DNA of 64,000 nt from Candidatus Stahliibacteriota bacterium (GTDB taxonomy: Bacteria; Hydrothermota; Tepidihabitantia; B3-TA06): positions 640 through 64,639 of the forward strand of contig SOJW01000068.1 of the NCBI GenBank assembly GCA_004375895.1, read 5' to 3'. Within the stretch, counting starts at the first letter, position 1. The number at the start of each line of letters is the position of its first letter. This document shows positions 15,411 through 46,662 of this stretch, piece by piece. Under the pieces are notes generated by a model. It saw nothing but the letters and a program-made list of their open reading frames with translations. It was not told the origin of the DNA and ran no database searches. A program made the translations under genes and the position numbers.

Positions 15411-15433
15411 TATTCGACATTTCGGACAACCTC

Positions 15434-18637: not shown

Positions 18638-18728
18638 AACACTATCTCTCCATCATTACAGATTCCAGCATTATCCAGACGATCTAAAACATATACGGAC
18701 AGTCCAAAAGGTGTGTTACGGGCGTGGT

Positions 18729-20663: not shown

Positions 20664-21208
20664 TTACCAGGCTTCCCGGAGGTTTGGGAGGAGGGCGAGG
20701 GCTCTGGTGGGTGTCTTACGGGTGTTACGGGTGAGGAGGGCCGATACTTCTTGATGATCTCCGGCACCTTATCCTGTCGTACGTGGGCGTGGGTCTCCTC
20801 GTCGATCATCACCGCAGGTGCGATGGAACAGCATCCGACGCATCGCACTCCCTGCAGGGTGAACTGGCCGTCTCGAGTTGTCTCGTCCTGCTCAACACCA
20901 AGATCGCGCTTGAACCGATCCATAATCAGGCTAGCTCCCTTAACGTGACACGCTGTTCCCAGACAGACATTAATTATGTGCTTACCTTTGGGTTTTAATG
21001 AGAACGCGGAATAGAACGTAGCCACATGATAGACCTGAGCTACAGGTATGCGCAATCTGGCCGCGACCTGGCGCATGGCCGCTTCGGGCAGATACCGGTA
21101 GCGCACCTGAAGCTCCTGAAGGGCCGCTATGAGAGACGCCCTCTTTTCTTCAACTTCGTTAAGGATGGTATAAGCGTTTTCGCTCACCAACCCTTTTAGT
21201 TGATCCAT
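20660..21208 (-). CDS. NuoE/HydC-like [2Fe-2S] subunit; start at ATG 21208
   Basis: VATFYSAF, INVCLGTACHVKG, VRCVGCCSIAPAVMID. Confidence 0.92.
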   Translation of the reverse strand: MDQLKGLVSENAYTILNEVEEKRASLIAALQELQVRYRYLPEAAMRQVAARLRIPVAQVYHVATFYSAFSLKPKGKHIINVCLGTACHVKGASLIMDRFKRDLGVEQDETTRDGQFTLQGVRCVGCCSIAPAVMIDEETHAHVRQDKVPEIIKKYRPSSPVTPVRHPPEPSPSSQTSGKPGK

Positions 21209-21216
21209 TGACGCGA

Positions 21217-21244
21217 ATTCTACACGGTTACTGAAGAATGTCAA
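21217..21244 (-). promoter_or_regulatory. Promoter of nuoEFG-hdr cluster, probably leaderless
   Basis: TTGACA-16-TAGAAT-TCGCGTCA-ATG. Confidence 0.7.
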
Positions 21245-21446
21245 GGATCTTCGGGGTAATTTTCTCCTCTTGCCGGGGTCTAGTGCCCCAGCTTGCACTT
21301 GCCGTCTAGTGTCGAGTGAGTGGGACAAAGTGTGAGTGGATCTAAATCCGCGTCACCGAAGGAGAACGACCGCAGGGAGTTCTAATCCGCGTACGCTTTG
21401 CGACGGAAGTAATCTGTGGTTCCTTCAACCTCCTCCCCCGGCGGGG

Positions 21447-31609: not shown

Positions 31610-32215
31610 TTAATATCCCCAGAGCTCGTTAAGGATCACCTTGCGCCGGCAAGCAGGGCACAAAAGCCGCTGGTGGTCACTGCGGTAAGGCTCGGCATCA
31701 CCACGCTCAGGCTTCATCTCAACCGTATCCAAACTGCTCTGACGCGCCAGAACCAGGGTAGGGTTGGCATAGGCAAGCTCCCCCAGGCGTCGGGCGATCC
31801 ACTCCAGATGCTCACGGGTAGTTATCACCCCACCGCAGCGCTCGCAGAACAAAAGTTCCTTTTCGATCTCATCCCGGTATTGCTCCTTGTCAAGATAGGT
31901 CATATCGTAGTCCACGGTGTGGCGAATAGCCTCTGTCGGGCAATATGTAACGCACTGACCGCAGAAGATGCACATATCCTTTAGATAGACCACGTGCCTG
32001 ATGCCTTTCTCAAGATCATCCTCAAGCTCACGCGCCCTGGCAGGACAAACCTCAACGCATGCCCCGCAACCGATACATTTCTCCTCATCGAAAACGATAA
32101 CGCCGCGGAACCGAGGCGGAGGCAGGGTTGCCCTTTTGGGAAATTTAGTGGTGTAAGGAGCGGAGAAGAGAGATCGCAGCGCCTCACCCAGTTCTCGAAT
32201 CTTAGGCCACTTCAT
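31610..32215 (-). CDS. NuoI/MbhN-like 2x[4Fe-4S] subunit
   Basis: PYTTKFP, CIGCGACVEVCP, CIFCGQCVTYCP, plus CERC/CPAC; start ATG 32215. Confidence 0.9.
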   Translation of the reverse strand: MKWPKIRELGEALRSLFSAPYTTKFPKRATLPPPRFRGVIVFDEEKCIGCGACVEVCPARARELEDDLEKGIRHVVYLKDMCIFCGQCVTYCPTEAIRHTVDYDMTYLDKEQYRDEIEKELLFCERCGGVITTREHLEWIARRLGELAYANPTLVLARQSSLDTVEMKPERGDAEPYRSDHQRLLCPACRRKVILNELWGY

Positions 32216-32612
32216 CGTCCTTCTCCTTACTCTCTTTGGCTTCGCCTTCCTCGCTTTCGATCTGCGGCCCTCCCAGTTTATCCTTGCCGTAGGAATCAAT
32301 CACGGTTCCCTTCCACATCTTTGCTCCAAAGCGCAAGGAACCACGGGAAAGGGCGTGTGCCGAAACGGGTGCGGTCAACAGCAAAAAAACGCCGCAGATG
32401 AGCGCCTTGATACCCAAAGGGGTAAAGCCTGCAACGATCAGGATACCGATCATGATCCCGAAGGTGCCCAGGGTAACGCTCTTTGTTGCCGACTGCAGGC
32501 GGTTGTAAACATCCGGGAACCGGACAAGACCGATGGCACCAAGAAGGTCAAAAACCACACCCACAAAGATCACGATGTATCCGATTATATCAACTACAGT
32601 TACCTCAGTCAT
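32202..32612 (-). CDS. MrpG/MbhC antiporter subunit
   Basis: GAIGLVRFPDVYNRLQSATK, TAPVSAHAL. Confidence 0.9.
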   Translation of the reverse strand: MTEVTVVDIIGYIVIFVGVVFDLLGAIGLVRFPDVYNRLQSATKSVTLGTFGIMIGILIVAGFTPLGIKALICGVFLLLTAPVSAHALSRGSLRFGAKMWKGTVIDSYGKDKLGGPQIESEEGEAKESKEKDDEVA

Positions 32613-32871
32613 CAAGCGTCCTCCGCTCAAGGTACTTGGCCAGGGCAAGCGTCCCGACAAAACTAATCAAGGCAAGGGCAATCGCGATATCCACCAGGAA
32701 TGAAAGATTGTAAAGTATACCGGTAATCGCCGTTATCCCGACGAAGAGTATGCCCATGATGTCAACCCCAACCATGCGGTCGGCAATCGTGGGCCCGCGG
32801 AAGATGCGGAAAAGGCACAGGAAAGACGCAACCCCAAGGATAATGAGAATAACAATCCAGAGAACACTCAT
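32605..32871 (-). CDS. MrpF/MbhB antiporter subunit
   Basis: RIFRGPTIADRMVGVD, SFVGTLALAKYL. Confidence 0.9.
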   Translation of the reverse strand: MSVLWIVILIILGVASFLCLFRIFRGPTIADRMVGVDIMGILFVGITAITGILYNLSFLVDIAIALALISFVGTLALAKYLERRTLDD

Positions 32872-33362
32872 TCGAAGATCCTCCTCAAGTACTTCTCGAA
32901 CTTCGCCACTATTGCCTTTGTGTTGGCTTCGACATCCTCCCCATCGTCCAGTACATCGATCCAATGAACGTAAAGGACATCTTCATCCACGTCAACGGTC
33001 ATGGTTCCAGGGGTAAGGGTGATGGAGTTGGCAAGAAACGCCTTGGCCACGTCTGTCTTGAGCACGGTTTTCACCTTCACGATTCCGGGTTTTACAGGAC
33101 AGGCAGGATGAAGCACGCGGAACGCAACGTCAAGATTGGCCACCAGCATGTGCCAGAAGAATACAGGTATATAGATGATGCCCCAGAACCAGCGACGAGG
33201 GTTGAGGAATGAAAGGGGCCGATGGGTAAACTCTGCACCGAAGAAGATAGCCACAAGAAGCGCCAACACCGCTCCAACAACATAGACCGGCCAATCGCCT
33301 CCTGGCAAGGTCAAGAGCAGCCACAATCCATAGCTGAGGACAAACAAAACCACTCGCCGCAT
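32868..33362 (-). CDS. MrpE/MbhA antiporter subunit
   Basis: ANLDVAFRVL, KPGIVKV, LANSITLTPGT, LYVHWID. Confidence 0.92.
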   Translation of the reverse strand: MRRVVLFVLSYGLWLLLTLPGGDWPVYVVGAVLALLVAIFFGAEFTHRPLSFLNPRRWFWGIIYIPVFFWHMLVANLDVAFRVLHPACPVKPGIVKVKTVLKTDVAKAFLANSITLTPGTMTVDVDEDVLYVHWIDVLDDGEDVEANTKAIVAKFEKYLRRIFE

Positions 33363-33363
33363 G

Positions 33364-34872
33364 CTAACCCCCCGTCCCTATCCTGAACACAATATCAGCA
33401 TACTCGGTCCCCTTGAGCAGAACATCGGCCGCAGGCTGCAAAAGGTGGGGTTTGAGCCAGAAGAAGAACGCGCCGCCTGCCACCAACAGAACAACAAGAC
33501 AGACCATGGCGAAGACCATAACGAACGGGGATTCCTTTATCCCCTTTATACCCTCCTTGCCCCAGAATACCTTGTTGGTGATCTTCAAGAGATAGCCCAG
33601 GGTAACCACAGCAAAGAGCCCGGCTACGACGGCAGGGACGATGAACCCCGCTTTTACCGCACCCAGGATAATAAACAGCTTGGAGAAGAAGCCCAGGAAA
33701 GGAGGCATGCCGGCAACAGAAAGAGCGCCCAGGTTATAGGAAAGCGAGGTCCAGGGCATCTGCTTGCCCAGCCCACCGGTAAACTTGGTTATGTCGCGTT
33801 CTCCAACACGGTAGACGACAGAACCTGAGGTGAGAAACAGAAGCCCCTTACCGAGCGAGTGGCTCAGGATATGCGCAAACGCACCTATAAGTGCAAACTC
33901 GTTGCCTATACCCAACGCAAGCACAATGTAGCCGATCTGACTGATGCTTGAGTAGGCCAGAAGCCGCTTGTAATCCTTCTGAGGGAGTGCAAGTAGGCCT
34001 CCCACCACGATCGAGACAAGTCCGAGGATTAGAAGTGCATTAAAGACCTCTGGGGAGCTGGCTCGAGAGAAGCCGTATACGTTGAAGAGAATCCGCGCCA
34101 TAGCATAAACCCCCAGCGCCTTGGTAAAGACACCTGAAAGCACGGCGGTAACAGGAGCAGGAGCCGAGGGGTAGGCATCGGGTAACCAGAAGTGGAAGGG
34201 AACAAGGCCCGCCTTAAGCGAAAAACCGAACATCAAGAGAATAACCACGAAGTAAAAGCCCGGGGTCTTATCCATAGTAGCGAACGCGCGGGAAAGATCG
34301 GCAAGATTGAGGGTAGAGGTAGCGGCGTAGATTAATGCGATCGCCAGAAGGATCATCAGACTTGCTATCTCCCCCATCACCATGTACTTGAATCCGGCCT
34401 CCAGCTCCTTAGGCTTGGTCCCGAAGGCCACGAGCGCGTAGGCAGCGAGACCCGCGATCTCCATAAACACAAACATATTGAAAAGATCGCCGGTCATCAC
34501 CACCCCGTTCATCCCGACGAGCATCAAAAGATACAGGGTGTAGAACTTCCCCGCCCCGGTGAACTGATCCATGTATCGGATAGCGAAGAGATAGGAAAAG
34601 AACGCCAGGATAGAGACAATCAGAAGCATGAGGGAAGAGAGCTTATCAACCGCAAACGCGATCCCCAAAGGAACCGGCCAGTTGCCAAACAGGTAAACCA
34701 AGGGCTTCCCAGGCACAAGGAAGAAGGCGAGATAGATACTCAAAGCCAGAACGGTCGCTAGGCAAAGCCCGGCGACGATCTCTGCCAAACGCCTCCAGGC
34801 CTTGTAAAGAATGGGCACAAGGAAGGCTCCACCCAGGGGGATTGCAATCAAAAGAACCGGAAATGTCTCCAT
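33364..34872 (-). CDS. MrpD/MbhH-like antiporter subunit
   Basis: GDLFNMFVFMEI, KAGLVPFHFWLPDAY, KRLLAYSSISQIG, GMPPFLGFFSK. Confidence 0.9.
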   Translation of the reverse strand: METFPVLLIAIPLGGAFLVPILYKAWRRLAEIVAGLCLATVLALSIYLAFFLVPGKPLVYLFGNWPVPLGIAFAVDKLSSLMLLIVSILAFFSYLFAIRYMDQFTGAGKFYTLYLLMLVGMNGVVMTGDLFNMFVFMEIAGLAAYALVAFGTKPKELEAGFKYMVMGEIASLMILLAIALIYAATSTLNLADLSRAFATMDKTPGFYFVVILLMFGFSLKAGLVPFHFWLPDAYPSAPAPVTAVLSGVFTKALGVYAMARILFNVYGFSRASSPEVFNALLILGLVSIVVGGLLALPQKDYKRLLAYSSISQIGYIVLALGIGNEFALIGAFAHILSHSLGKGLLFLTSGSVVYRVGERDITKFTGGLGKQMPWTSLSYNLGALSVAGMPPFLGFFSKLFIILGAVKAGFIVPAVVAGLFAVVTLGYLLKITNKVFWGKEGIKGIKESPFVMVFAMVCLVVLLVAGGAFFFWLKPHLLQPAADVLLKGTEYADIVFRIGTGG

Positions 34873-34878
34873 AGCCAG

Positions 34879-35217
34879 CTATCCTTTCAGCCTCTGGATC
34901 TCTTCGAGATCAAAGGAACCGATGCGGTTGTAGATCCGCAATATCAACGAGAGCATGAAAGCAGTAACGCCAAGACCGATCACTATAGCGGTAAGCACCA
35001 GGGCTTGAGGCAAGGGATCGGAGTAAACCTTACCTACCTCAACCGCCTGGAGTATGGGCGGTACGGCGCCGGGGCGAAATCCCACAATAGCAAACAGAAA
35101 GTTTACCGAGTACTCCATAAGCGAAAACCCCACCGCTATCTTTATCATGTTGCGCTTGGTGATTATGGCATAAAGCCCAACAAGGAACAGAATCAATGAA
35201 GCAACCAGGATAATCAC
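34879..35217 (-). CDS. MrpC/MbhG subunit; start at GTG 35217
   Basis: KRNMIKIAVG, DPLPQALVLTAIVIG. Confidence 0.9.
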   Translation of the reverse strand: MIILVASLILFLVGLYAIITKRNMIKIAVGFSLMEYSVNFLFAIVGFRPGAVPPILQAVEVGKVYSDPLPQALVLTAIVIGLGVTAFMLSLILRIYNRIGSFDLEEIQRLKG

Positions 35218-35221
35218 CGCA

Positions 35222-35659
35222 TCACTCCTTGAATATGTATTTGGTTGACGCCAGCACAAGGAAGATGGAAAGTATAGCCGCCGCTACCTTGATGCCGATC
35301 GCAATGTTAGAGAAGGGAATGGAACCGGCAGAGACAAGCCTTCCTTGTGTACCGAAGGAAGGAAAGAGATTTATAAAGAAGTACCCGCCGACAAAGAGCC
35401 CAAGCAAACCAACGAGAAGGAAGAGAAGTCCACCGGTGCTTTCGAAGATGGACGAGGAGATCGAGGCGCTCTTCTCCTGCTTTGCGGTTGTGCCGAATGC
35501 AAGCCGTGAAAGTATAAGGCCTGCAGCTATAATCGCCCCGCCTGCGAACCCGCCGCCGGGCGAGAGATGCCCGTAGAGTACGATGTAGCAGCCGTAAAGG
35601 AAGATGAATCCTCCAACGAGGCGGACTACCACCTTGACAATCGGGGTCATTCCACTCAT
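35222..35659 (-). CDS. MnhB/MbhF domain subunit
   Basis: GHLSPGGGFAGG, NIAIGIKV. Confidence 0.9.
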   Translation of the reverse strand: MSGMTPIVKVVVRLVGGFIFLYGCYIVLYGHLSPGGGFAGGAIIAAGLILSRLAFGTTAKQEKSASISSSIFESTGGLLFLLVGLLGLFVGGYFFINLFPSFGTQGRLVSAGSIPFSNIAIGIKVAAAILSIFLVLASTKYIFKE

Positions 35660-36189
35660 TTCCTTCTCCCTTCAAGCCTGAGAACTGCAAGGACTCCAAT
35701 CACGGCGGTAAAGAGAACCGTTGTCTCGCCCAGGGTATCCAACGCCCGGTAGTCGAGCACCACCGAGGTTACCCGATTCACTGCCCCGGTCTCTGCCAGA
35801 CCCTGCGTTAGATAGTGACTTGCAACCTGACCGAGCTCCCGACTCATAGGGGCAAGACCTGCAAACAGCCTGATACCGAAGTAGACAAAGGCCAGCGCAA
35901 ACACCCCGAATACCACAAAGGTAAAGATGTCAGCCGGCTTATAAGGCCGTCCTGCTGCAGAATCCACGTGCGTGGTCTTAAGGATCACGGCGACAAAGAA
36001 GACCACCGAGAGGACCTCGATCACGATCTGAACTATGGCCAGATCGGGCGCTGCAAGCATTATGAACCCAATGGCTACAGCGAACCCCACCGCACCTAAC
36101 GCTATCACCGAAGCCAGGAGGTCCTTGATCTCGACGGCCACAATTCCAGCCGCTATCATAAAGATCAACAAAACGATAAGATCAAGCAC
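35656..36189 (-). CDS. DUF4040 + MnhB N-terminal (MbhD/E-like) subunit
   Basis: APDLAIVQ, AVNRVTSVVLDYRALDTLGETTVL. Confidence 0.88.
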   Translation of the reverse strand: MLDLIVLLIFMIAAGIVAVEIKDLLASVIALGAVGFAVAIGFIMLAAPDLAIVQIVIEVLSVVFFVAVILKTTHVDSAAGRPYKPADIFTFVVFGVFALAFVYFGIRLFAGLAPMSRELGQVASHYLTQGLAETGAVNRVTSVVLDYRALDTLGETTVLFTAVIGVLAVLRLEGRRK

Positions 36190-38143
36190 CGCCGCCTCCT
36201 CGAATCAGGAACAGGATCAAGATCAAGATCCCCAATAATATCCAGCCCAGGTAAAACGTCAACCGCCCGGTTTGCCACCGGCTCAAGCCCTTACCGGCCA
36301 GATTGAAAAAGTACATTATGAACCGTGTGAGTGCGTTGAGAGAGTCGTCTATCAGCCCTTTCACGGCCTTCCCTAAGGCTCGGGCAACGCTTTCTATATA
36401 GTGGAAGGGGTCGAAGGAACCTCCTTCTGCAAAGCGGTAGAACTCTCCAAAGATCTTGACCTCTTTGATAGATGAGTAGAAGTGCGTACCGGAGAAGTGC
36501 ATCTCCTCCTCGGTCAACTCCTCGGCACCCAAGAAGACCTTACGCGGACGAGGCTTATAGCTGCCGCCGACAAGGTAGATAAGGAAACCAAGAGACATAA
36601 TAACGAGAATGATTGCTGCAAACGCAAGGGGGGAAAAGTGCCCTAAAGGAACTATGACCGAGGCCGAAAGTGCAGGAGACACAAGATACCGTAAAGGTAA
36701 GCGGAAAGCAAAGAGACCGAACGCGATGCAGGCCAAAGCCATCACCAGAGGCGGGAACCAGCCGGTGAAGGATACCTCTTTTACCCCTTCCAGCGGTTTT
36801 GGCCGCCTGCCGAGGAAGAGCGAATGGGTAAGCTTGAGGAAAGACGCAAGGGTCAGCACGCTACCGAACGCACCTGCAACCAGGAAGATAAGGAAGAAAG
36901 GCTGGGTTCGTCCCAGTTCAACAAACGACTGATAGACAAGCCACTTGGACACAAAACCGTTGAGCGGCGGCACGCCTGAGATGGCCATAGCCGCGATAAG
37001 GAAGGAGAAGAAGGTAACGGGCATAGCCCGTGCAAGTCCTCCCAGCTTCTCAAGATCGCTCTCCCCGGTCTGGCGTCTCACCGCTCCGCCGGTAAGAAAG
37101 AGGGCACTCTTGTAGATAGCGTGGTTCATCATGTGGAAAAATCCACCAGCGATTCCAATTACCGTACCTGAGGCTATACCCAGGATCATGTAGCCTACCT
37201 GGCTCACCGCGTGGTAGGAAAGAAGGCGCATGGCATCCTTCTGTACAATTGCCATAAACACCGCGGCAAGAACGGTAACCGCCCCTATTGTAAGGAAGAT
37301 AAGCTGCACCGTAAGGTTGGAACGGATGTCAAAGATGGAGTAGCAAAGACGGACAAACAGGTAGATACCCAACAGCTTATCCAGGCTGGCAGGAATGAAC
37401 GCCATTGTTTCTGCAGGAGCCGATTCCGCCGCTTTGGGTATCCAGGTATGCATCGGGAACGCCCCGGCCTTGGTTAAAGCAGCGGCAGCGATGCAAACAA
37501 AAGCAACAATAGCCAGAGGGTCTGTAAGCGCAAAACGCTCAGCCCTGACCCCAGGGAAGTAGGCAAGTTGACCCGGCTCTACTCCCTGCTGTTTGGTATA
37601 TATGATAAAAACAAGTACCCCGAACAGCAACAGGAAGTCGGCCACCCCGTTCAGAACGAACATCTTGCGTGCGGCCATCTCCACGTCTCCCCTGCCGTAG
37701 AACAGGAGTCCATACACAGTAAAAAGCAGAACCCCCCAGAAGAAGTAAAGAACAAGCACTGAGCTGGCCAAAAGCGCCCCGTTTGCCGCACCGTAGGTGA
37801 GAAGAGCGAAGGTAAAGAACTTCCAGTCATCCCGGGGCCCGCCACGGAAGCGGAAGCTGTAAAGGAATATAAGGAACGCGAATCCGGAAACAAGCAGTAA
37901 GATAACACCTGAAAGCCCATCAACTTGAAGACGGTTAGCAATCCCGAATACCTCGGGTAAAGGGATGGGCGAGGTTCCGGTTCCGCTAAGCCCATCCAAG
38001 AAGATCCGCAGAGCGAAATAACCGGTTCCAAGAGCCGCTGCTATGGCTATATAACGCCGAGCAGGACGAATCAAAAACGCCAGCAACGCCCCGACCAAAG
38101 GAATAAGAACGAGCAACGTCATCGGTTGAAACAGATACCGCAT
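36182..38143 (-). CDS. NuoL/MrpA/HyfB-like proton-translocating subunit (653 aa)
   Basis: KAGAFPMHTWIP, RLLSYHAVSQVG, HAIYKSALFL, GVPPLNGFVSKW. Confidence 0.88.
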   Translation of the reverse strand: MRYLFQPMTLLVLIPLVGALLAFLIRPARRYIAIAAALGTGYFALRIFLDGLSGTGTSPIPLPEVFGIANRLQVDGLSGVILLLVSGFAFLIFLYSFRFRGGPRDDWKFFTFALLTYGAANGALLASSVLVLYFFWGVLLFTVYGLLFYGRGDVEMAARKMFVLNGVADFLLLFGVLVFIIYTKQQGVEPGQLAYFPGVRAERFALTDPLAIVAFVCIAAAALTKAGAFPMHTWIPKAAESAPAETMAFIPASLDKLLGIYLFVRLCYSIFDIRSNLTVQLIFLTIGAVTVLAAVFMAIVQKDAMRLLSYHAVSQVGYMILGIASGTVIGIAGGFFHMMNHAIYKSALFLTGGAVRRQTGESDLEKLGGLARAMPVTFFSFLIAAMAISGVPPLNGFVSKWLVYQSFVELGRTQPFFLIFLVAGAFGSVLTLASFLKLTHSLFLGRRPKPLEGVKEVSFTGWFPPLVMALACIAFGLFAFRLPLRYLVSPALSASVIVPLGHFSPLAFAAIILVIMSLGFLIYLVGGSYKPRPRKVFLGAEELTEEEMHFSGTHFYSSIKEVKIFGEFYRFAEGGSFDPFHYIESVARALGKAVKGLIDDSLNALTRFIMYFFNLAGKGLSRWQTGRLTFYLGWILLGILILILFLIRGGGGA

Positions 38144-38144
38144 C

Positions 38145-39548
38145 CTATCCTCCTGCTCCGATATAGGCCAAAAGCGGCTTTATTGCAAAACTGGCACCGA
38201 AAAGGGAAAGGGATATCACAAGAACGAGTATGGAGAGGAAAACGGATTGAGACATCTGTGGCTCCGGTTTCTTGCCTATAAGAAAAACGGACGAAAAGAG
38301 CCTGAGCATGTAGAGCAGGGTGAGGATCGAAGCAAGGATAAATCCTGCTCCTATGAGGATCCTGCCGCTGGATAGGATGCCGAAGATGACGTCGAGCTTT
38401 GCAAAGAACCCGAGAAGTGGGGGCAGACCTATGACTGAAAGGGTTGCGATAATAACACCCACAAAAAGGATCGGGAAGTTAGCAACCAGCCGCCCCTTAT
38501 GTCTGATGCCACGTCCGCCCATCTCGCGCTCCACTATTCCATACCCCATAAGAAGTGTCGCCTTGCCTAATCCATGCGCGATTATGAAAAGAATCGCTCC
38601 GATCATGCCCAGCTGGGGCGATATAGCAAATCCTGCAAGAACGAACGCAAGCTGGCTTACGGTTGAGTATCCCAGGATGCGCCGGTAGTCGTTAACGACA
38701 AGGGCGACTCCACCCGTTACAATACTGGAAGCAAGCGCTATCCACAGGATGGAAAGCTGCCAAGCCCCGGAAAGCGCAAAGGTTTCCACAAAGATCTTCA
38801 TAAAGGCGATAAGTCCGAAGTTCTCCAGCATCCCGGCCAGGAGAGCTACTACCGGTGTGGGTGATACCGCATATGCCGATGGAACCCAGATGTAGAGTGG
38901 TATCACCGCAGACTTTGCGAAGACGCCGCAGAGTATGAAGATACCTGCAAGCACAGGCATAGGCTTGCCCACCATATCGCCCAGATTAAGCGAACCGAAC
39001 TCTGAAGCCAGAAGAAGGAACCCGACCAGCATAAAGGCTGAACCGAAGAAATTAATAAGGAGGGTTCTTGCGGCGATAGAGATCTTCTCCTGGGTTCGAC
39101 CGAAACCGATAAGCCGCCAGGCAGCCACCGCCGCTATCTCCCAGAAGATATAGATGAAAACAAGATCGTTGGTGAAAAGCAAACCCATTGCGGAGCCAAG
39201 CATGAAAAGCATTAAGGAATAATACTCGGTATCTGCTTCTTCACTCTTCCGGAAGAACCCGAAGGAAAAAAGCATTATGATCAGACAGAGGAAGACAAAG
39301 GCAGCGGCGATAACAAGGGTTATGGGAGAAGTAAAGAACTGCGGGGATTCTGCCGATCCCAAAATATGCCAGAGCCTGAATCCTTTATTGCTCGCCGAGG
39401 TGAAGTTCAGCGCCAAAAGTAATCCAGTAGCAAGAACGGTCAAAAGACTGAATATCCACCGCAGCACCCGCAGGAAACGCCCGGGGAAGAGCACCAATAG
39501 ACCACCTATGAAAGGCACCGCGATAAGCAAAAGCAGCACAACGTTCAC
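38145..39548 (-). CDS. NuoL/M/MrpD-like proton-translocating subunit (467 aa)
   Basis: IFWEI, KSAVIPLYIWVP, RILGYSTVSQ, HGLGKATL, GLPPLLGFFAK. Confidence 0.88.
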   Translation of the reverse strand: MNVVLLLLIAVPFIGGLLVLFPGRFLRVLRWIFSLLTVLATGLLLALNFTSASNKGFRLWHILGSAESPQFFTSPITLVIAAAFVFLCLIIMLFSFGFFRKSEEADTEYYSLMLFMLGSAMGLLFTNDLVFIYIFWEIAAVAAWRLIGFGRTQEKISIAARTLLINFFGSAFMLVGFLLLASEFGSLNLGDMVGKPMPVLAGIFILCGVFAKSAVIPLYIWVPSAYAVSPTPVVALLAGMLENFGLIAFMKIFVETFALSGAWQLSILWIALASSIVTGGVALVVNDYRRILGYSTVSQLAFVLAGFAISPQLGMIGAILFIIAHGLGKATLLMGYGIVEREMGGRGIRHKGRLVANFPILFVGVIIATLSVIGLPPLLGFFAKLDVIFGILSSGRILIGAGFILASILTLLYMLRLFSSVFLIGKKPEPQMSQSVFLSILVLVISLSLFGASFAIKPLLAYIGAGG

Positions 39549-40738
39549 GATCCGCCTCCCATGCGTGCCGTCTTCTCCTGAGAAAGCTTCACAAGATCAT
39601 CCCATGTGTAGAGAAGTTTACCTTTGGTGTTGAATGCTGCGATTCGTTCGGTGCAGCAGTAGCAAGGGTCAACCGCAGCCAGGGTGATGGCGGCATCGGC
39701 AACCGAGGCGCCTAAGACGGCCACCTCGTTGGACTTGATATTCATAAAGCTTGGGGCGCGGATCTTGTAGCGCACCGGATAGAGTGAACCATCCCCCTTA
39801 ACGTAGTGGAAGACCTCACCGCGAGGCGCCTCGTAGCGGCCGATACCCTTGCCGTCAGGCGGATACTCCATGCGGGCATCTATCTCGCCCGCTGGCAAAT
39901 CCTTCAGCTTCCCAAGACACTGACGGATAATCTTGGTGGACTCAAAGCACTCAAGCAGACGAACCTTGGCCTTGGCAAACACATCCCCTTCATGTAAAAC
40001 TATCTCTTCCCACTCGATCCAATCATAGGCGGCATGCGGATCGTCCTTGCGAACGTCAGTCGCCAGACCCGAGGCACGAGCCGTGGGTCCGACAACGCTG
40101 TACTCTACCGCCTTCTCCTTAGTAAGGACCCCGACACCCTCAAGCCTGCGGTGGAGCACAGGATCATCCAGTATAGCCTTGGTAAGCATCATGATCTTCT
40201 TATCGGCGGCGTCAAGCACCTGCAAGAGCGGTGGGATCATACCGCCTTCGATGTCGCGGCGAACCCCGCCTGGCTTGAACATCGCGTAGTGGTTGCGGTT
40301 TCCGGTAATTAGCTCAAGCATCTCCAGCACAGGCTCGCGGTACTTCCACGCCCACATCCAGACGGTGTTGTAGCCCAAAAAGTGCCCGGCAAGCCCGACC
40401 CAGAGGAGGTGGGAGTGCAAACGCTCAAGCTCGCCGACGATGGTACGGATGTATGCGGCGCGTGGCGGGATCTCGATGCCTGCCGCGTCTTCGATTGCCT
40501 GCACGCATGCGAATGGATGCGAGGTGGAACATATCCCGCAGATGCGCTCAACAACAAAGGGGATCTGGTCATAGGTTTTGCCCTCGCATATCTTCTCGTG
40601 GCCGCGGTGCATGTAACCGAGCTGAATGTCGAGCCCGACTACCTTCTCCCCCTCGACCGTCAGCTTGAAGTACTCGGCCTCCTCCTGCAGAGGGTGGAAC
40701 GGCCCGATGGGGATTATCTTACGTTCGAGTTCAGCCAA
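39545..40738 (-). CDS. Group 4 [NiFe]-hydrogenase large subunit; TTG start at 40738
   Basis: Both Ni-binding motifs: ERICGIC and DPCYCCTER, plus ~30-aa C-terminal extension; PIGPFHP, EAPRGE; SD AGGAGG. Confidence 0.9.
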   Translation of the reverse strand: MAELERKIIPIGPFHPLQEEAEYFKLTVEGEKVVGLDIQLGYMHRGHEKICEGKTYDQIPFVVERICGICSTSHPFACVQAIEDAAGIEIPPRAAYIRTIVGELERLHSHLLWVGLAGHFLGYNTVWMWAWKYREPVLEMLELITGNRNHYAMFKPGGVRRDIEGGMIPPLLQVLDAADKKIMMLTKAILDDPVLHRRLEGVGVLTKEKAVEYSVVGPTARASGLATDVRKDDPHAAYDWIEWEEIVLHEGDVFAKAKVRLLECFESTKIIRQCLGKLKDLPAGEIDARMEYPPDGKGIGRYEAPRGEVFHYVKGDGSLYPVRYKIRAPSFMNIKSNEVAVLGASVADAAITLAAVDPCYCCTERIAAFNTKGKLLYTWDDLVKLSQEKTARMGGGS

Positions 40739-41255
40739 AGGACCTCCTATAGGGATGATAGTCATCAGGTGAGTCGTCCGGAAGCAAGAGATGACGGGTA
40801 TCACCCAGACCGCGGAACCCGATTCCAAGTATCTCGTGCATCTCGCGCTCAATCCACTCGAAGCCGCGGCCAAGAACGGAAAGGGAGTCAACCTGAGGAT
40901 CGTCGTGAGGCAGCGTAACCCGGACGTTTATTAAAAGACCGAGACGATCCAGGGAGAAGTGATAGAGTATGGTAAATCCCCTCGGGATATCTTCGCCAGT
41001 GGCGATCGAGAAGCGACAGCCAAGGGTATTGAAGCAGAAATCGGCGACCTTAACGACATCCTCGGCGGCTATCTCCCAGTACCAGCGGCGCTTACGGACA
41101 AGGTTGAGCTCTCCTTCGGGGTAGAACTCGCGGCATTGCCCCTCTACCCGCTTGAACTCAGCCTCGCTGTCCCTTTGATGACAGAAGCCTTTGTCACCGA
41201 TATAAGCGCCGTTCTTTTCAAGATTCTTGGTCTTGGTTACTTCATCAGGCATCAC
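40731..41255 (-). CDS. NuoC/MbhK-like subunit
   Basis: RFSIATG.D, ILYHF, WIEREMHEILGI.F.G, HLLLPDD. Confidence 0.88.
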   Translation of the reverse strand: MMPDEVTKTKNLEKNGAYIGDKGFCHQRDSEAEFKRVEGQCREFYPEGELNLVRKRRWYWEIAAEDVVKVADFCFNTLGCRFSIATGEDIPRGFTILYHFSLDRLGLLINVRVTLPHDDPQVDSLSVLGRGFEWIEREMHEILGIGFRGLGDTRHLLLPDDSPDDYHPYRRSFG

Positions 41256-41692
41256 AGGTCCTTAAGTTTCTTTATCTTTTCGATAGCGCGCACCACCCCG
41301 AGTATCATCGCCTCGGGCTTGGGCGGGCAGCCACCTATGTAAACATCAACCGGAATATGCTTATCCAAAGGGCCGGCGAAGTTGTAGGAGTCCACGAATA
41401 AATCACCGGAGATAGCGCACGAGCCGAACGCAGCAACCAGGCAGGGTTTAGGGGTCTGGGCGTAGACGCGCAGGACCCGGTCGAGAACCTTTTTATTCAC
41501 CATACCGGTAACCAGAAGCAAGTCTGCGTGACGCGGGGAGCCGACAAGAAGAAGCCCGAAACGCTCCACGTCGAATCGAGGGGTCAGGAGGTCGAGTATC
41601 TCGATATCACAGTTGTTGCACGGGCTTGCGGAAACGTGGTAAACCCACAAAGAACGGGCAAGTGCACCTTTCTTAAGTCCTTTCAACATCAC
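41252..41692 (-). CDS. Group 4 hydrogenase small subunit (NuoB/MbhJ-like)
   Basis: CNNCDIE, SPRHAD, GSCAISG, GGCPPKP. Confidence 0.92.
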   Translation of the reverse strand: MMLKGLKKGALARSLWVYHVSASPCNNCDIEILDLLTPRFDVERFGLLLVGSPRHADLLLVTGMVNKKVLDRVLRVYAQTPKPCLVAAFGSCAISGDLFVDSYNFAGPLDKHIPVDVYIGGCPPKPEAMILGVVRAIEKIKKLKDL

Positions 41693-42636
41693 AGCCCCAC
41701 AGCAGCCAGTATGAATCCCACGATCGAGAGGACTAAAACGATAGACCAGAAGAAACGCAACGCCTGATCTATCCGCAGCCGGGGATTCGTGTTCTTGATA
41801 AGGATGATCAAAACGATTATTGCCACAGGCTTAAGCCAACCCAGGATGTGGTACCAGCCTTGGCGCGGCGAGCGGAAACCGCCCCAGAAAAACACGGTAA
41901 GAAAGATGCTTGCCGTAAAGTAAAGCATCGCCTTGGTTAGTTTGAGCACGGCCAACGCAGGACCAGAATACTCCAGTATGGTTCCACCCATGATCTCCTG
42001 CTCCGCCTCGGCTATATCGAAGGGAACAAACCCCAGCTTGGCCTGCATGCATAAAAACGCCGAGACAAAAGCAATCGCCCCTGAAGCTGAGTAAAGAAAC
42101 GGATGATTGGCCCATTGCCACTGCAGCAAATCCCCTATCTTCAGGAGTCCGCCTGACTTGACTATGATCGTGGCCAGAGCAAAGAGCAGCGGAAGCTCAT
42201 AGGCAAGATAAAGCGTCATCTCACGCGAGGCACCAAGCGCTGAGATCGGGTTGGAGGAGGCCGAAGCACCAATGATCAGAATAATCGGCACGAACACAAA
42301 GAGGTAGAGAACGACTATCAAATCACCTGCAAACGCCTGCTGGGGGAACATATTGGAAACAAGAAGCACGGTGGATAGGACACTCACCGAGGCAAGCCCT
42401 ACAAGTGGAGCGCCAAGGAAAATAGAACGTGGAGCACCTTCAGGCACAAAGGTATCTTTACCTAGAAGCTTGAAGAAATCGTAAAACGGCTGAAGCAGGG
42501 GCGGACCGACCCTGAACTGCACCCGGGCGGTTACCTTACGATCTATCCAGGTGTAAAGAAGTCCAACCACGCTGGTAAAGAGGAACCCTGGGAAGACAAG
42601 GAGATAGAAGAACACCCAGCCGACGCTCATATTCAT
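41689..42636 (-). CDS. NuoH/MbhM-like membrane subunit
   Basis: IDRKVTARVQFRVGPP..QPFYDFFKL, PFDIAEAEQEI..G..LEYSG. Confidence 0.92.
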   Translation of the reverse strand: MNMSVGWVFFYLLVFPGFLFTSVVGLLYTWIDRKVTARVQFRVGPPLLQPFYDFFKLLGKDTFVPEGAPRSIFLGAPLVGLASVSVLSTVLLVSNMFPQQAFAGDLIVVLYLFVFVPIILIIGASASSNPISALGASREMTLYLAYELPLLFALATIIVKSGGLLKIGDLLQWQWANHPFLYSASGAIAFVSAFLCMQAKLGFVPFDIAEAEQEIMGGTILEYSGPALAVLKLTKAMLYFTASIFLTVFFWGGFRSPRQGWYHILGWLKPVAIIVLIILIKNTNPRLRIDQALRFFWSIVLVLSIVGFILAAVGL

Positions 42637-43100
42637 TGACGCCTCCAGGATGGTGAACGGGAGATGAACCGATCGTTTACAGGCGTCTTGGGGAGCTCAT
42701 CAACACTTATATATTTAAGGGCGAAGGAAGAACAACTGGCCACACATCTGGGGCCGCCATCCCGCTCTTGACAGTAGTCACACTTCGTGGCGATGTGTCT
42801 TTCCAGATACTGCTGAATGACCCCGAAAGGACATGCAAAGGTACAGGACTGACAGCCCACGCAAAGGAAGGGACGATGAACAACCACTCCGGTCTCCTCA
42901 TCCTTTACAAGGGCTTCTGTGAGACAGGAAGCTGCACATAAAGGGTCCTCGCAGTGACGACAGGCAGAGGGAAGATTGGCCTGTCCCGCTATATACCCAT
43001 GACGGATACGCGGCTCACCGTGGTGGGACTGCATACAGGCCGCTCTGCAACTCTCGCAACCGCAGCATAGATCAAGATCAAGGACTATTACCTTTTCCAT
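42633..43100 (-). CDS. HycB/CooF/DmsB-like 4x[4Fe-4S] protein
   Basis: CCGCESCRAAC, CRHCEDPLCAASC, CVGCQSCTFACP, KCDYC...RCVASC. Confidence 0.9.
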   Translation of the reverse strand: MEKVIVLDLDLCCGCESCRAACMQSHHGEPRIRHGYIAGQANLPSACRHCEDPLCAASCLTEALVKDEETGVVVHRPFLCVGCQSCTFACPFGVIQQYLERHIATKCDYCQERDGGPRCVASCSSFALKYISVDELPKTPVNDRFISRSPSWRRQ

Positions 43101-44689
43101 ATCCTGCTCCATGAAGGCTTAAGCAGGCCTTCGCCGGTTGCCGAATCCGTGCCCAGCTCAAAGAGCGCAAGCGAGGGTTGATGGTTCGTGCTGACAACCG
43201 CAACGCCAGAAGGTATACCGGGCTGAATCCTCGTGCTTAACCAGGCCTCCCCCTGTTCGGTCTCAATCCCGACCTCTTCCTTATCCTTAACCCCAAGCGA
43301 GGAGGCATCTTCAGGGCTAAGCTTAACCCAGGCCTCTTCGGCAAAGATGGAAAGAAAGCCAATCGCTGACTGGGTTCCTACAAGAAGATAATCCCTGCCC
43401 CTTCTTCGCTTTGCCTTGTAAGACACAAGCGCCTCGGCACGCTCATCGATCGCGGCATCATCCAACGCTTCATGATTCCCAACCAGGGACTCTACCGGCT
43501 TCACCGTGCCACCCAGGCGCCTTATATACTCCCCTGCTGGCAGGCTGCCGGAAAGTGGGGGAAGTTCACCGGTGAGTTCTGCATCACCGAAAAGGGTAAG
43601 GATACTTCCCTGCTTCTCTAGCTCCGCGGTCATCGGCAGAACGAGCTCCAACTCAAAACGTCCGTCCGGGATAAAAAGAGCCCCTGCGGCCACAAACTCG
43701 GCCTTACGAAGAACCGGCTTCAGTTGAGGCTGACCCCAGGGGAAGTAAGCGCCAAAACTCACCACCGCCTTGATGCGTCCTCCCATGAGCATGGGAAGAT
43801 AGGAGTAGAAGGAACTCCTAACCCCGGAAGGCACCCTGCGACCAAGGGGAAGATACCTCATCTGCTCAAGCACGCCGGCGAGCCCAAGAGCGGCTGCGTG
43901 GGTAAGAAAGGGATCAAAGCTGCGGCCACGGGAAGGCGCATTCACAAGAACACCATCCTTGTTGCGAATCATCAAAGCAACAGCCTCAAAGGTCGAGACC
44001 TCAACCCCGCATGCCTCGGTAATAGACTCAAGATCAACCTTATCGCTCGCAATGTGTTTATAAAGACCGTATAAAAACAGCCCCTCGTAACCGGCTTTTA
44101 CCTGCACGAATCTGTGGGCAAAGTGCGAGGTGTTGGTCTCGAACGCATCTACCACTATGTAGCGAAACTTCCGGTTATCACCCTTTGCCTTGCCGAGGTA
44201 GCCAGAGATAACCGAGTCCTGACCAAAGGCGTCCCCCACAATGAAGGCATACTCACCGGTGGTGATCTTCTCTACAGAGGTTGCCGGCGACTTACCGTAA
44301 AGGAACGCCGACTCCGGACCTAACGTTACGTAAGCCAGATTCTCGTAGCCAGCTCCGCGGGTCCATGCCGCGAGCAAAGCAGCCTCCTCACAGGTAAGCG
44401 AGGCGTCGTAGACCACAAGCACCTCGTCAGGCTTGAAGTCAGTAAGCCTTTGACGAAGATACCCTATCGCCTCTGCCAACGAAGCCTGCTCGCCCTTTAT
44501 GATAGGATGATAAAGTCGCTTACGGTGATTGGCTATCTCGGCAGCCGCGTTTCCTTTAGGGCAAAGACTGCCTTCATTACGTGAATCGGAAACATAATCT
44601 ACTCTCCTGATATCCCTTCCCTTAACCTCGAACCCCAACTCGCAGCCCAGGTTGCAGAATGGACATACGGTGCGAGTGGTCTTGCTCAT
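43088..44689 (-). CDS. Molybdopterin-oxidoreductase-fold (NuoG C-terminal/FdhF-like) protein; start ATG 44689
   Basis: VCPFCNLGC...SLCPKG [4Fe-4S], C-terminal dinucleotide-binding-like region (LSPEDASSLGV); no Mo-ligand Cys/Sec motif recognised. Confidence 0.75.
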   Translation of the reverse strand: MSKTTRTVCPFCNLGCELGFEVKGRDIRRVDYVSDSRNEGSLCPKGNAAAEIANHRKRLYHPIIKGEQASLAEAIGYLRQRLTDFKPDEVLVVYDASLTCEEAALLAAWTRGAGYENLAYVTLGPESAFLYGKSPATSVEKITTGEYAFIVGDAFGQDSVISGYLGKAKGDNRKFRYIVVDAFETNTSHFAHRFVQVKAGYEGLFLYGLYKHIASDKVDLESITEACGVEVSTFEAVALMIRNKDGVLVNAPSRGRSFDPFLTHAAALGLAGVLEQMRYLPLGRRVPSGVRSSFYSYLPMLMGGRIKAVVSFGAYFPWGQPQLKPVLRKAEFVAAGALFIPDGRFELELVLPMTAELEKQGSILTLFGDAELTGELPPLSGSLPAGEYIRRLGGTVKPVESLVGNHEALDDAAIDERAEALVSYKAKRRRGRDYLLVGTQSAIGFLSIFAEEAWVKLSPEDASSLGVKDKEEVGIETEQGEAWLSTRIQPGIPSGVAVVSTNHQPSLALFELGTDSATGEGLLKPSWSRIWKR

Positions 44690-45498
44690 ACGAAGGGATC
44701 CTCCAGATGCTTGATTCGATCCCAGGTAATCACAGGACCGTCCTTGCAGCAGAAGAGTTCTCCCAGCCGGCAGTGGCCGCACTTACCGAATCCACACGAC
44801 ATGTTCTTCTCCATCGAGAGGTAGATATCCTCATCTGCAAACCCCAGCTCAAGGAGCCTTTTGGTGGCAAACTTCATCATGACAGGCGGTCCGCAGGCAA
44901 CGGCAAGGCCGTCATTGGGTTTGAAGGGAAGATTGTCCAAAAGCACGGTCACAACGCCCACCTTCTCCTTCCAGTTCTTATCCCCCACGTCAACGCTGCG
45001 GCGTATCTCCACATTCTTGATCTTGCCCCACTCCTTGAACAGACGGTCGTAGACTATATCCCTGGGGGTGCGTGCCCCGTAGTAGAGATGAATCTTCTTG
45101 TATGCGGAGACGTTGTGCAGAAGTGCAAGGAAGAGCGATCGCAGCGGGGCAAGTCCGACGCCGCCGCCCACTATAAGCACGTGACGCCCTTCATAGCGGT
45201 CTGTCTCATAGGGTACGCCATACGGACCGCGGACAGCCAATGTGTCGCCAGGACGAACATCAAAGAGCTTCGAGGTGACGCGACCGACCTTCATTATCGT
45301 AACCTCCATACTCTCCTCCACGTAAGGAGAGGACGAGGGTGTAAATGGTGCCTCTCCAACCCCGGGGGCCGTCAGCTCGATAAACTGACCCGCGTGGAAT
45401 GAGAGCGCCGGCTTTGGCTCCAGCGTAAACGTGCGGATGGTCGGGGTCTCGATTATAACTTCCTTGACCTTAGCCTGGCGGGATTCGTAGGGATTCAT
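44686..45498 (-). CDS. FAD/NAD(P)H-binding subunit, AsrB/HydG/FlxA family
   Basis: GQF, RGPYG, GGGVGLAPLRS, CGPPVMM, MSCGFGKCGHC..CCKDGP. Confidence 0.92.
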   Translation of the reverse strand: MNPYESRQAKVKEVIIETPTIRTFTLEPKPALSFHAGQFIELTAPGVGEAPFTPSSSPYVEESMEVTIMKVGRVTSKLFDVRPGDTLAVRGPYGVPYETDRYEGRHVLIVGGGVGLAPLRSLFLALLHNVSAYKKIHLYYGARTPRDIVYDRLFKEWGKIKNVEIRRSVDVGDKNWKEKVGVVTVLLDNLPFKPNDGLAVACGPPVMMKFATKRLLELGFADEDIYLSMEKNMSCGFGKCGHCRLGELFCCKDGPVITWDRIKHLEDPFV

Positions 45499-46517
45499 AG
45501 CGCCCTCAGGACCTCACGAATGTCTATCTTACCCGTGCACCCGGCGATACAGCGCCCGCAGCCGGTGCACGCGGAAACCTTGAAGTTGCGCGGAAAGGCC
45601 ATAAACTTGCACTCGAAACGGTTACGCAGCCGGTGAGAAAAATGTGCAAGCGGGTTCACGCCACCGCCTACCCTGCCATAGGCGGCGTGGTAGCACCAGT
45701 CAAGCACCTTGACACGCTCAACACCCTTACCGACAGGGATATCATAAAGCAGGAAGCAGTAGCACGTCGAACAGATCCGCTCGCAGGCCTGGCAGTCAAC
45801 ACAGTTGGCCAGGGCCTTGGCCCAGAACGTGGTGTCAAGTTGATGCTCAATCCGATCGGGAAGGTCCGGGGCAAACTCATCGGGGTTGACCTTGGCAAGC
45901 TTGCGCTCGGCGTCGGTACGATGTTTGTCGCGCTTCTTAATCTCTTTTTTATCCACCTCCTTGAGAAGGTCCCCCATCTTCTCAACGATCTCTTCCCCCT
46001 TTGCGGAAAGCACATCCACGATTATCCCCTCCTCGCCAAAGGATAGGTTCAGGTCTCCACCCCAGACAGAGTAAGGTTTGCCGCCGATCCGCAGGCAGAA
46101 GCAGGTATCTGCAGGCTCAGGGCAATCCACGGTAACAACGAGATACTTCTCCCGGCGTTCCTTGTAGAACGGGTCCTCGAGCACGCCCTTAAGGTAGACG
46201 TTATCCTGAATCTCAATAAGCGAGCGGATGTCGCAGTCCTTCGCTCCCACTATCACCTTAGGTTTGATGTCCTTGGAGAAAAGCTGCGGGAAGCTTGCCA
46301 CCCGTTCACGTGAGCCTAAGAAAAATTCCTTCAAAGGCTCTACCGGTCGAACCATCTTGAGGGCTTGGTGAAGTTCCTCTGCTGCAATCTCCTCCTCGCG
46401 CCAGAGCTCGTAGATGGCGTGACGGTCAAACACGCGCGGGTAGTAGGTTTCGCCATATTTTGCCAACTGGGTATAGAACGCAGGAATTGAGGCTAGGGGT
46501 AAAAAAAGAGACCTCAT
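45495..46517 (-). CDS. AsrA/HydB/FlxB-family 4Fe-4S subunit, first gene of the hydrogenase operon
   Basis: GAKDCDI, C.EPADTCFC, CVDCQACERICSTCYCF, CTGCGRCIAGC. Confidence 0.9.
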   Translation of the reverse strand: MRSLFLPLASIPAFYTQLAKYGETYYPRVFDRHAIYELWREEEIAAEELHQALKMVRPVEPLKEFFLGSRERVASFPQLFSKDIKPKVIVGAKDCDIRSLIEIQDNVYLKGVLEDPFYKERREKYLVVTVDCPEPADTCFCLRIGGKPYSVWGGDLNLSFGEEGIIVDVLSAKGEEIVEKMGDLLKEVDKKEIKKRDKHRTDAERKLAKVNPDEFAPDLPDRIEHQLDTTFWAKALANCVDCQACERICSTCYCFLLYDIPVGKGVERVKVLDWCYHAAYGRVGGGVNPLAHFSHRLRNRFECKFMAFPRNFKVSACTGCGRCIAGCTGKIDIREVLRAL

Positions 46518-46525: not shown

Positions 46526-46553
46526 ACTATACACAGAAATCAGGGCTTGTCAA
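46526..46553 (-). promoter_or_regulatory. Promoter of hydrogenase operon, probably leaderless
   Basis: TTGACA-16-TATAGT-TCGCGGCA-ATG. Confidence 0.72.
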
Positions 46554-46631: not shown

Positions 46632-46662
46632 GCGATCTTTTGTGCGCCAGCACAAAAGGAGC
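46632..46662 (+). repeat. Covarying hairpin element, copy 2
   Basis: GCGATCTTTTGTGC-GCCA-GCACAAAAGGAGC. Confidence 0.8.

Follow-up and report, generated by a model that had tools for sequence, protein, structure and literature searches.

A Hun-type [NiFe]-hydrogenase operon with a sulfhydrogenase-like input module, a formate dehydrogenase-like subunit, and three antiporter-like subunits in a WOR-3 bacterium

Group 4 [NiFe]-hydrogenases that combine an Mrp-type antiporter module with an additional oxidoreductase module have appeared in three metagenome papers. Glass et al. 2021 (bioRxiv 10.1101/536078) described Hun, a 16-subunit Ni-Fe hydrogenase-Na+/H+ antiporter supercomplex (HunA-P) whose large subunit, HunG, was classed as 4g by HydDB and bears the signature CGIC-CYCC; they predicted ferredoxin as the electron donor, named Atribacteria, Firmicutes, Omnitrophica, Elusimicrobia, Bacteroidetes, and the cultured Kosmotoga as hosts, and noted a molybdopterin-domain protein between HunB and HunC in “some MAGs” (metagenome-assembled genomes). 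Méheust et al. 2020 (bioRxiv 10.1101/765248) distinguished a “Mbh-Mrp-oxidoreductase type” of unknown function, and Saganbacteria RX5A was found by Matheus Carnevali et al. 2019 (PMC6349859) to encode a group 4 hydrogenase that they called “enigmatic”; it combines asrA-, asrB-, and cooF-like genes with Mrp subunits and a molybdopterin protein that could not be classified, and it has relatives in Zixibacteria and Omnitrophica. HydDB lists the role of group 4g as undetermined and defines none of its nine group 4 classes as NAD(P)H-coupled, and our literature search found no biochemical study of Hun. Here, we analyzed a locus on the minus strand (46517 to 31610) of a 64,000-nucleotide (nt) stretch of DNA, hereafter the window, from a “Candidatus Stahliibacteriota” (WOR-3) bacterium (GenBank assembly GCA_004375895.1, contig SOJW01000068.1, positions 640 to 64,639). 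We identify it with high confidence as a Hun-type ion-translocating hydrogenase, because the CGIC/CYCC signature is present in HunG and in each of its 120 best homologs in the database. A preliminary description, made from the letters of the window, had taken the locus for an Mrp-coupled group 4 [NiFe]-hydrogenase fused to a sulfhydrogenase-type NAD(P)H module. No complex of this arrangement has been biochemically characterized; the arrangement itself is not a new fusion, as it was already published from metagenomes as “Hun” and as the “Mbh-Mrp-oxidoreductase type.” What the window adds to this type is supporting detail and two extra subunits.

The locus consists of 18 co-oriented open reading frames, assigned by Pfam and NCBIfam matches, that overlap or abut one another. 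With refined start codons, neighboring genes overlapped or stood no more than 6 nt apart at every junction, and seven junctions had ATGA-type 4-nt overlaps, including that between gene 4 (HycB-like) and gene 5 (NuoH-like). On the basis of these overlaps, the operon appears continuous and its 18 genes translationally coupled. The gene content and order given in the preliminary description were recovered in full, as was its single operon of overlapping genes; the overlap of genes 4 and 5 tells against the separate unit of the first four genes that it had allowed for. In a survey of neighborhoods, the same order recurred at 10 further WOR-3 loci and in two additional phyla, which rules out a chance arrangement. 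The 3′ end of the operon abuts a convergent gene.

In most respects, the organization is that of Hun. AsrAB-like HunA and HunB stand at the 5′ end, followed by the 4Fe-4S protein HunC, an order kept in 12 related loci; then come NuoH-like, small, NuoC-like, and large subunits with CGIC/CYCC, an Mrp-like Na-module of MnhA-G homologs together with P-module subunits, and, as the last gene, a NuoI-like subunit. The window differs in having 18 genes instead of 16, the extras being a relic of a formate dehydrogenase H (FdhH)-like protein and a 467-amino-acid antiporter-like subunit, a variation in subunit count that leaves the core unchanged. It also differs in host, since WOR-3 is absent from those named in the available portion of the Hun preprint, and in electron donor, which we read as NAD(P)H (reduced nicotinamide adenine dinucleotide or its phosphate) rather than the ferredoxin predicted there.

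The hydrogenase core is encoded by HunD (41689 to 42636; this and all further genes of the operon on the minus strand), a NuoH/MbhM/HycD-like membrane subunit (PF00146, E = 9e-62); HunE (41252 to 41692), a NuoB-type small subunit; HunF (40731 to 41255), a NuoC/MbhK-like subunit; HunG (39545 to 40765), the 406-amino-acid [NiFe] large subunit; and HunP (31610 to 32215), a NuoI/MbhN/HycF-like subunit with 2 × [4Fe-4S]. HunG has both Ni-binding motifs, L1 RICGIC (CGIC at residues 76 to 79) and L2 DPCYCC (366 to 371; CYCC at 368 to 371), and a C-terminal tail of 32 amino acids after ...TER; the tails of its 120 homologs measured 31 to 43 amino acids, mostly 31 to 34. Among solved structures, the large subunit was closest to Pyrococcus furiosus MbhL (6cfw_L, 286 bits), followed by Escherichia coli HycE (246), complex I Nqo4 (204), and MbsL (176). 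Cysteines 25, 28, 92, and 122 of HunE can hold the proximal [4Fe-4S] cluster. As the preliminary description had proposed to check, the rest of the genome was searched for maturation genes: hypA and hypB lie on contig C74, hypE and hypF are present, hypC and hypD are split over two contig ends, and there is one gene for a HycI-family protease. By sequence, the [NiFe] site is complete and, with this gene set, maturable. The C-terminal half of HunP (31610 to 31990) includes a conserved extension of about 80 amino acids with two CxxC motifs (residues 124, 127 and 186, 189), and orthologs from other phyla match HunP across the full length, extension included. The extension, which may form a zinc ribbon or bind an additional cluster, is not known from MbhN.

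Among solved structures, the group 4d Mbh of P. furiosus (6CFW) provides the nearest large subunit and the nearest MrpD-like subunit (270 bits), and it shares Mrp-derived small subunits (MbhA-G equivalents) as well as the NuoH-like and NuoI-like subunits. Unlike Mbh, which takes ferredoxin directly at MbhN without HunABC or an FdhH-like module and has one antiporter-like subunit, the window operon has three of the latter, and a four-gene input module precedes its core, whereas group 4d Mbh is defined by having no extra oxidoreductase module.

That input module begins with HunA (45495 to 46517), a HydB/ShyB/AsrA-like Fe-S subunit of 340 amino acids with 16 cysteines and two CxxCxxCxxxC motifs, and HunB (44686 to 45498), a HydG/AsrB-like flavoprotein of 270 amino acids with FAD_binding_6, NAD_binding_1, and DHODB_Fe-S_bind domains, whose first 4 nt (ATGA) are also the last of HunA. 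Both matched, over their full length, subunits of the P. furiosus soluble sulfhydrogenase I (group 3b, 9NEZ) in the PDB: HunA the beta subunit (9nez_B, E = 2e-30) and HunB the gamma subunit (9nez_C, E = 9e-51), which holds the FAD (flavin adenine dinucleotide) and NAD(P)H site. Unlike in sulfhydrogenase I, the partner of this pair is a membrane-bound group 4 enzyme and not an alpha/delta dimer. The FAD motifs of HunB (GEAPFTPSS, GRVT), its NAD(P) motifs (GGGVGxAP, CGPP), and its four [2Fe-2S] cysteines were invariant among orthologs from WOR-3, Latescibacteria, and Elusimicrobiota, and the subunit is among the best conserved across phyla (54 to 70% identity, compared with 34 to 36% to paralogs in its own genome). 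This invariance across three phyla is the main support for a functional nucleotide site in HunB and makes coupling to NAD(P)H plausible. An origin of HunA and HunB as recent duplicates of the genome's own group 3b beta and gamma subunits was considered and rejected, since those paralogs are 30% and 36% identical to them, respectively, whereas Hun orthologs from other phyla are 54 to 70% identical. The module ends with HunC (42633 to 43112), a HycB/CooF-like ferredoxin of 159 amino acids whose four 4-Cys motifs probably hold 4 × [4Fe-4S].

Between HunB and HunC lies the FdhH-like gene (43088 to 44689), which encodes a MopB-fold, FdhF-like protein of 533 amino acids with Molybdop_Fe4S4 and C-terminal Molydop_binding domains. 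A profile built with its orthologs matched formate dehydrogenases in three regions only, namely the [4Fe-4S] domain at the N terminus, a part of domain II, and the cap at the C terminus; the subunit did not match PF00384. In alignment with E. coli FdhH, C9, C12, C16, C43, and Lys45 are kept, but family members have neither Cys nor selenocysteine near U140-H141, and the R333 segment is deleted, which bears out the earlier reading of a protein without molybdenum ligands. An AlphaFold2 model (pLDDT [predicted local distance difference test] 80, pTM [predicted template modeling score] 0.83) had as its top fold match E. coli FdhH in the formate hydrogenlyase (FHL) complex (7z0t_A, TMq 0.76, 15% identity), with NuoG lower in the list. 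MoaC, MoeA_N, and the Pfam Molybdopterin family (PF00384) gave no match in the approximately 90% complete genome; as a control for these molybdenum cofactor searches, 11 of 14 control genomes gave matches. The subunit is the fastest evolving of the operon, being 53 to 58% identical where the large subunit is 82 to 87% identical, and its Latescibacteria ortholog is 27% identical where the large subunit is 67%. The gene is absent from an otherwise collinear Elusimicrobiota operon. We therefore predict, from the lost catalytic residues, the missing cofactor genes, the fast evolution, and the absence in Elusimicrobiota, that the protein is catalytically dead and dispensable, a cofactor-less adaptor with one [4Fe-4S] cluster.

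This arrangement invites comparison with E. coli FHL-1 (group 4a, 7Z0S/7Z0T), in which an FdhH-fold protein and a HycB-like four-cluster ferredoxin likewise stand ahead of the hydrogenase core and in which the large subunit has a cleavable-type tail (about 32 amino acids in the window) and a HycI-type protease. Unlike FHL-1, the window operon has an FdhH homolog without the Sec/His/Arg residues and without the pterin-domain signature, and it has a flavoprotein module and an Mrp module, both of which FHL lacks.

The membrane arm contains three antiporter-like subunits, the number given in the preliminary description: the extra, MrpD-like subunit of 467 amino acids (38145 to 39548); HunH (36182 to 38143), a NuoL/MbsH′-like subunit of 653 amino acids with similarity to MbhH and MbsH′ and a long C-terminal helix of the NuoL type; and HunL (33364 to 34872), an MrpD/MbhH ortholog of 502 amino acids (270 bits to 6cfw_H). 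The remaining Mrp-like subunits are HunI (35656 to 36189), an MbhD and MbhE fusion equivalent to the C-terminal part of MrpA; MnhB/MrpB-like HunJ (35222 to 35659); MrpC/NuoK-like HunK (34879 to 35259), which probably begins some 13 codons after the TTG listed as its start, to judge by homologs of 112 to 113 amino acids; MrpE-like HunM (32868 to 33362); MrpF-like HunN (32605 to 32871), which has an ATGA overlap with the MrpE-like gene; and MrpG-like HunO (32202 to 32612). Channel residues were read from an alignment with E. coli NuoL, NuoM, and NuoN. The Lys of transmembrane helix (TM) 7, the His or Lys of TM11, and the Lys of TM12 are kept in all three antiporter-like subunits. HunL keeps all four channel residues; the 467-amino-acid subunit keeps the TM5 Glu, TM7 Lys, and TM12 Lys but has lost the TM8 Lys; and HunH keeps the Lys of TM7, TM8, and TM12, whereas its TM5 Glu, conserved in NuoL, NuoM, NuoN, and MrpD, is replaced by Gly (“FFWG” instead of “FxWE”).

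In its overall plan, the predicted complex also resembles complex I (NuoA-N). It has homologs of NuoH, B, C, D, I, and K, which imply an L-shaped chassis, and the two share three antiporter-like subunits with one NuoL-type lateral helix, a cofactor-less MopB-fold adaptor (compare the C-terminal domain of NuoG), and a nicotinamide-type input module. The differences lie at both ends of the electron path: the acceptor would be protons instead of quinone, with the Ni-binding cysteines kept, and the input is of the FNR/PyrK type (FAD) and not NuoEF (FMN, flavin mononucleotide), with no NuoE or NuoF in the Hun operon.

The reading that we favor, and that we hold probable, is of a Hun-type operon encoding an NAD(P)H-linked, ion-coupled H+/H2 enzyme; for NAD(P)H itself as the partner, the motifs of HunB tip the balance modestly above even. 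Electrons from NAD(P)H would enter at the FAD and [2Fe-2S] of HunB, pass to the [4Fe-4S] clusters of HunA, and then cross the single [4Fe-4S] of the cofactor-less relic, which would act as a structural adaptor like NuoG and take the place that FdhH occupies on HycB in E. coli FHL. From there, they would move through the four HunC clusters, the two HunP clusters, and the one HunE cluster to the [NiFe] site (2H+ <-> H2), a path proposed by homology to FHL (HycB-HycF-HycG-HycE) and sulfhydrogenase I. The operon itself encodes an unbroken series of Fe-S carriers and a complete Mrp-derived membrane arm. The redox reaction would be coupled to H+ or Na+ movement via the NuoH-like subunit, the three antiporter-like subunits, and the small Mrp subunits. 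The standard potential of NAD(P)H is −320 mV and that of H2 is −414 mV at 1 bar, rising to approximately −270 to −300 mV at 1 to 10 Pa. With the NAD(P)H/H2 couple thus near equilibrium at the H2 levels of sediments, the enzyme is probably reversible, and the reaction could run either way, consuming or generating an ion gradient. In a fermentative WOR-3 bacterium, the likeliest direction would be the evolution of H2 from NAD(P)H, which would either draw on or be balanced against a gradient maintained by Rnf and an A/V-ATPase. Gradient-assisted H2 evolution from NADH is an attractive solution for an Rnf-bearing fermenter without an [FeFe] hydrogenase, though one that we only infer.

Several points weigh against this reading. 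The subunit contacts are drawn by analogy with FHL (7z0s/7z0t), and what speaks for a nicotinamide partner is a set of conserved domain motifs. No Rex operator (TTGTGA-N6-TCACAA, allowing up to 2 mismatches) was found near the operon. The evolution of H2 from NADH at 1 to 10 Pa H2 yields almost no free energy, so three pumps are hard to reconcile with it unless the gradient is consumed. Moreover, a soluble NADP-type group 3b enzyme is already present, which poses the risk of a futile cycle unless the two enzymes differ in specificity for NADH and NADPH. The prediction of ferredoxin by Glass et al. 2021 is itself at odds with an NAD(P)H donor.

A ferredoxin-driven Hun, the most substantial of the alternatives, is in our estimate unlikely but far from negligible. 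Reduced ferredoxin would deliver electrons to the clusters of HunA and HunC, and H2 evolution would pump H+ or Na+ outward as in Pyrococcus Mbh, with the flavin site of HunB being vestigial, regulatory, or a secondary entry point. Ferredoxin-to-H2 electron transfer at low H2 spans 150 to 230 mV, enough for several ion-translocating modules, and so fits the energetics of three antiporter-like subunits better than the transfer from NAD(P)H does. The nearest solved relative of the large subunit is the ferredoxin-dependent MbhL, and no other ferredoxin-dependent hydrogenase was found in the genome. Set against this are the invariant FAD and NAD(P) motifs and the good conservation of HunB, which would be unexpected for a vestigial site, and the position of HunP: this MbhN-type ferredoxin-docking subunit is probably capped by HunC, as we infer from HycF beneath HycB in FHL. 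Rnf, furthermore, is already an outlet for ferredoxin.

It is improbable that the operon holds two enzymes, with HunA, HunB, the MopB-like protein, and HunC forming a soluble NAD(P)H oxidoreductase beside an ordinary Mbh-type hydrogenase. AsrAB-like pairs do occur beside FdhA without a hydrogenase in Saganbacteria (PMC6349859), and in one other WOR-3 genome (G045), HunAB lie 7 kb from the hydrogenase genes. In the window, however, a 4-nt overlap links gene 4 to gene 5; the order of module and hydrogenase is kept across three phyla; and HunC is homologous to HycB, the bridge to HycF in FHL. Moreover, the MopB-like protein would have no substrate site left, given the loss of its catalytic residues and the failure to find either of the two molybdenum cofactor biosynthesis families searched.

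More improbable still is a membrane-bound sulfur or polysulfide reductase, of the membrane-bound sulfur reductase (MBS) or “sulfhydrogenase” kind, in place of a hydrogenase. The sulfhydrogenase beta subunit has historically been tied to S0 reduction, and MbsL and MbsH′ are detectable relatives, but every homolog retains the complete set of four Ni-binding cysteines, the C-terminal tail, HycI-type protease, and hypA-F are present, and MbsL scores 176 bits against 286 for MbhL. Least credible is an Mrp-linked formate hydrogenlyase with an active, formate-respiring dehydrogenase (group 4b, like Thermococcus Fdh-Mfh-Mnh), which we reject even though the order of FdhF-like, HycB-like, hydrogenase, and Mrp genes resembles Fdh2-Mfh2-Mnh2 and the subunit comes closest in fold to FdhH in FHL, because neither Cys nor Sec occurs near position 140, His141 and the Arg333 segment are absent, PF00384, MoaC, and MoeA were not found in the genome, and the subunit is missing in the related Elusimicrobiota operon. 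The two-enzyme, sulfur reductase, and formate hydrogenlyase explanations are thus each contradicted by tested features.

More speculatively, and with somewhat less than even confidence, the NAD(P)H-linked reading can be extended: Hun would pass electrons from NAD(P)H to protons as an ion-motive oxidoreductase, in the manner of a complex I with protons at its end. A flavoprotein pair of the sulfhydrogenase beta/gamma type would have given rise to its nicotinamide module, separately from NuoEFG, with a dead formate dehydrogenase kept as an adaptor, and Rnf and Hun together would be a chemiosmotic equivalent of confurcation. If so, the WOR-3 form replays the step from MopB enzyme to NuoG, and the FdhH relic would offer a live example of a catalytic MopB protein becoming a scaffold, as NuoG did. 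Ferredoxin-to-NAD+ flow through Rnf would likewise build a gradient that helps push electrons from NADH to H2 without an [FeFe] hydrogenase. The identity of the donor has consequences beyond this locus. Some metabolic models of these subsurface fermenters treat Hun as a ferredoxin-dependent Mbh, and KEGG-style pipelines may count it as an NADH-quinone oxidoreductase; were NAD(P)H the donor, the predicted energy yields, H2 thresholds, and syntrophic behavior of these lineages would change, and group 4 of HydDB would gain a functional class that it now lacks.

The remainder of the genome provides the setting for these proposals. RnfC, RnfD, RnfG, and A/V-type ATPase genes are present, and no [FeFe] hydrogenase was found. 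A separate, complete group 3b cluster (HydB-HydG-HydD-HydA) lies at 3514 to 7632 of contig C53, so that the organism appears to hold a soluble enzyme in addition to the membrane-bound one, each with a beta/gamma-type module; at the contig end, this cluster is flanked by hypC and by the 5′ half of hypD. Outside the Hun operon, no NuoH, NuoB, NuoC, NuoD, or antiporter-like genes were found in the genome, which makes Hun its sole complex-I-family machine and leaves it without complex I. A KEGG-Decoder survey (PMC12285271) stated that WOR-3 genomes “tend to possess NADH-quinone oxidoreductase”; with Hun as the only source of Nuo-like genes here, such calls in anaerobic WOR-3 may be mislabeled hydrogenases.

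The preliminary description had also suggested that the gamma-like subunit, HunB, might stand in for an FlxA missing from an hdr cluster in the same window (6577 to 21328; NuoEF-HdrA-MvhD-Flx). We reject this idea because that cluster has NuoE-like and NuoF-like (FMN) subunits of its own and because contig C7 (77994 to 80425) has a third gamma/FlxA-like gene directly upstream of HdrC-like and HdrB-like (CCG domain) genes. These three C7 genes probably supply FlxA and HdrBC, the “missing” partners of the window hdr cluster. At 83585 to 85823, 3 kb away, the same contig has NfnAB-like genes, of which the NfnB-like was confirmed by Pfam and the NfnA-like was assigned by sequence only.

Upstream of HunA, a predicted sigma-70-like promoter (TTGACA-16-TATAGT, 46526 to 46553, minus strand) has 11 of 12 matches and is the best in the region. 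As the only strong promoter-like site, its location suggests a single transcript. Only 8 nt separate the −10 box from the first ATG, that of HunA, and no Shine-Dalgarno sequence is visible, so the transcript of the 15-kb operon may have no leader or almost none. A perfect 16-bp palindrome, TTGTGCGCCAGCACAA, lies at 46640 to 46655, some 90 bp upstream of the promoter, and occurs once in the window, where 0.05 occurrences are expected by chance. It was rejected as a Rex or CRP site, its half-site spacing being 2 bp too short, and it was not found in the 29 loci compared, some of which lacked the upstream region.

Hun-type operons also occur in Latescibacteria, Elusimicrobiota, Omnitrophota, Atribacterota, Saganbacteria, and the cultured Kosmotoga. 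Six WOR-3/“Stahlbacteria” loci were collinear with the window operon, and four more distant genomes of the same class retained the 18-gene order. Among 201 evenly drawn WOR-3 genomes, a HunG-type large subunit (at least 56% identity) was found in approximately 92 (about 46%) and the FdhH-like gene in 67, including nearly all genomes of the window's class. Subunit content varied in the other phyla examined: the Latescibacteria operon has the relic and one antiporter-like subunit, and the Elusimicrobiota operon has two antiporter-like subunits and no relic. Two variant loci also deserve mention. In G045, a WOR-3 genome of another class, a locus on contig C33 (locus coordinates 10446 to 15364 and 1633 to 4676) encodes FdhH-like, HycB-like, small, NuoC-like, large, and NuoI-like subunits, with no NuoH or antiporter genes adjacent to the hydrogenase genes and with hypA, an NUBPL/Mrp-type ATPase, HunA, and HunB about 6 kb downstream; from this gene content, the cluster may be a soluble Hun derivative. 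In another genome (G008, contig C5), two hydrogenase-like clusters lie side by side (locus coordinates 3856 to 7653 and 10996 to 19815): a short one with HunA-like, MopB-like, HycB-like, and NuoI-like genes and a large-subunit-like gene of 33% identity, and a Hun operon without a MopB-like gene.

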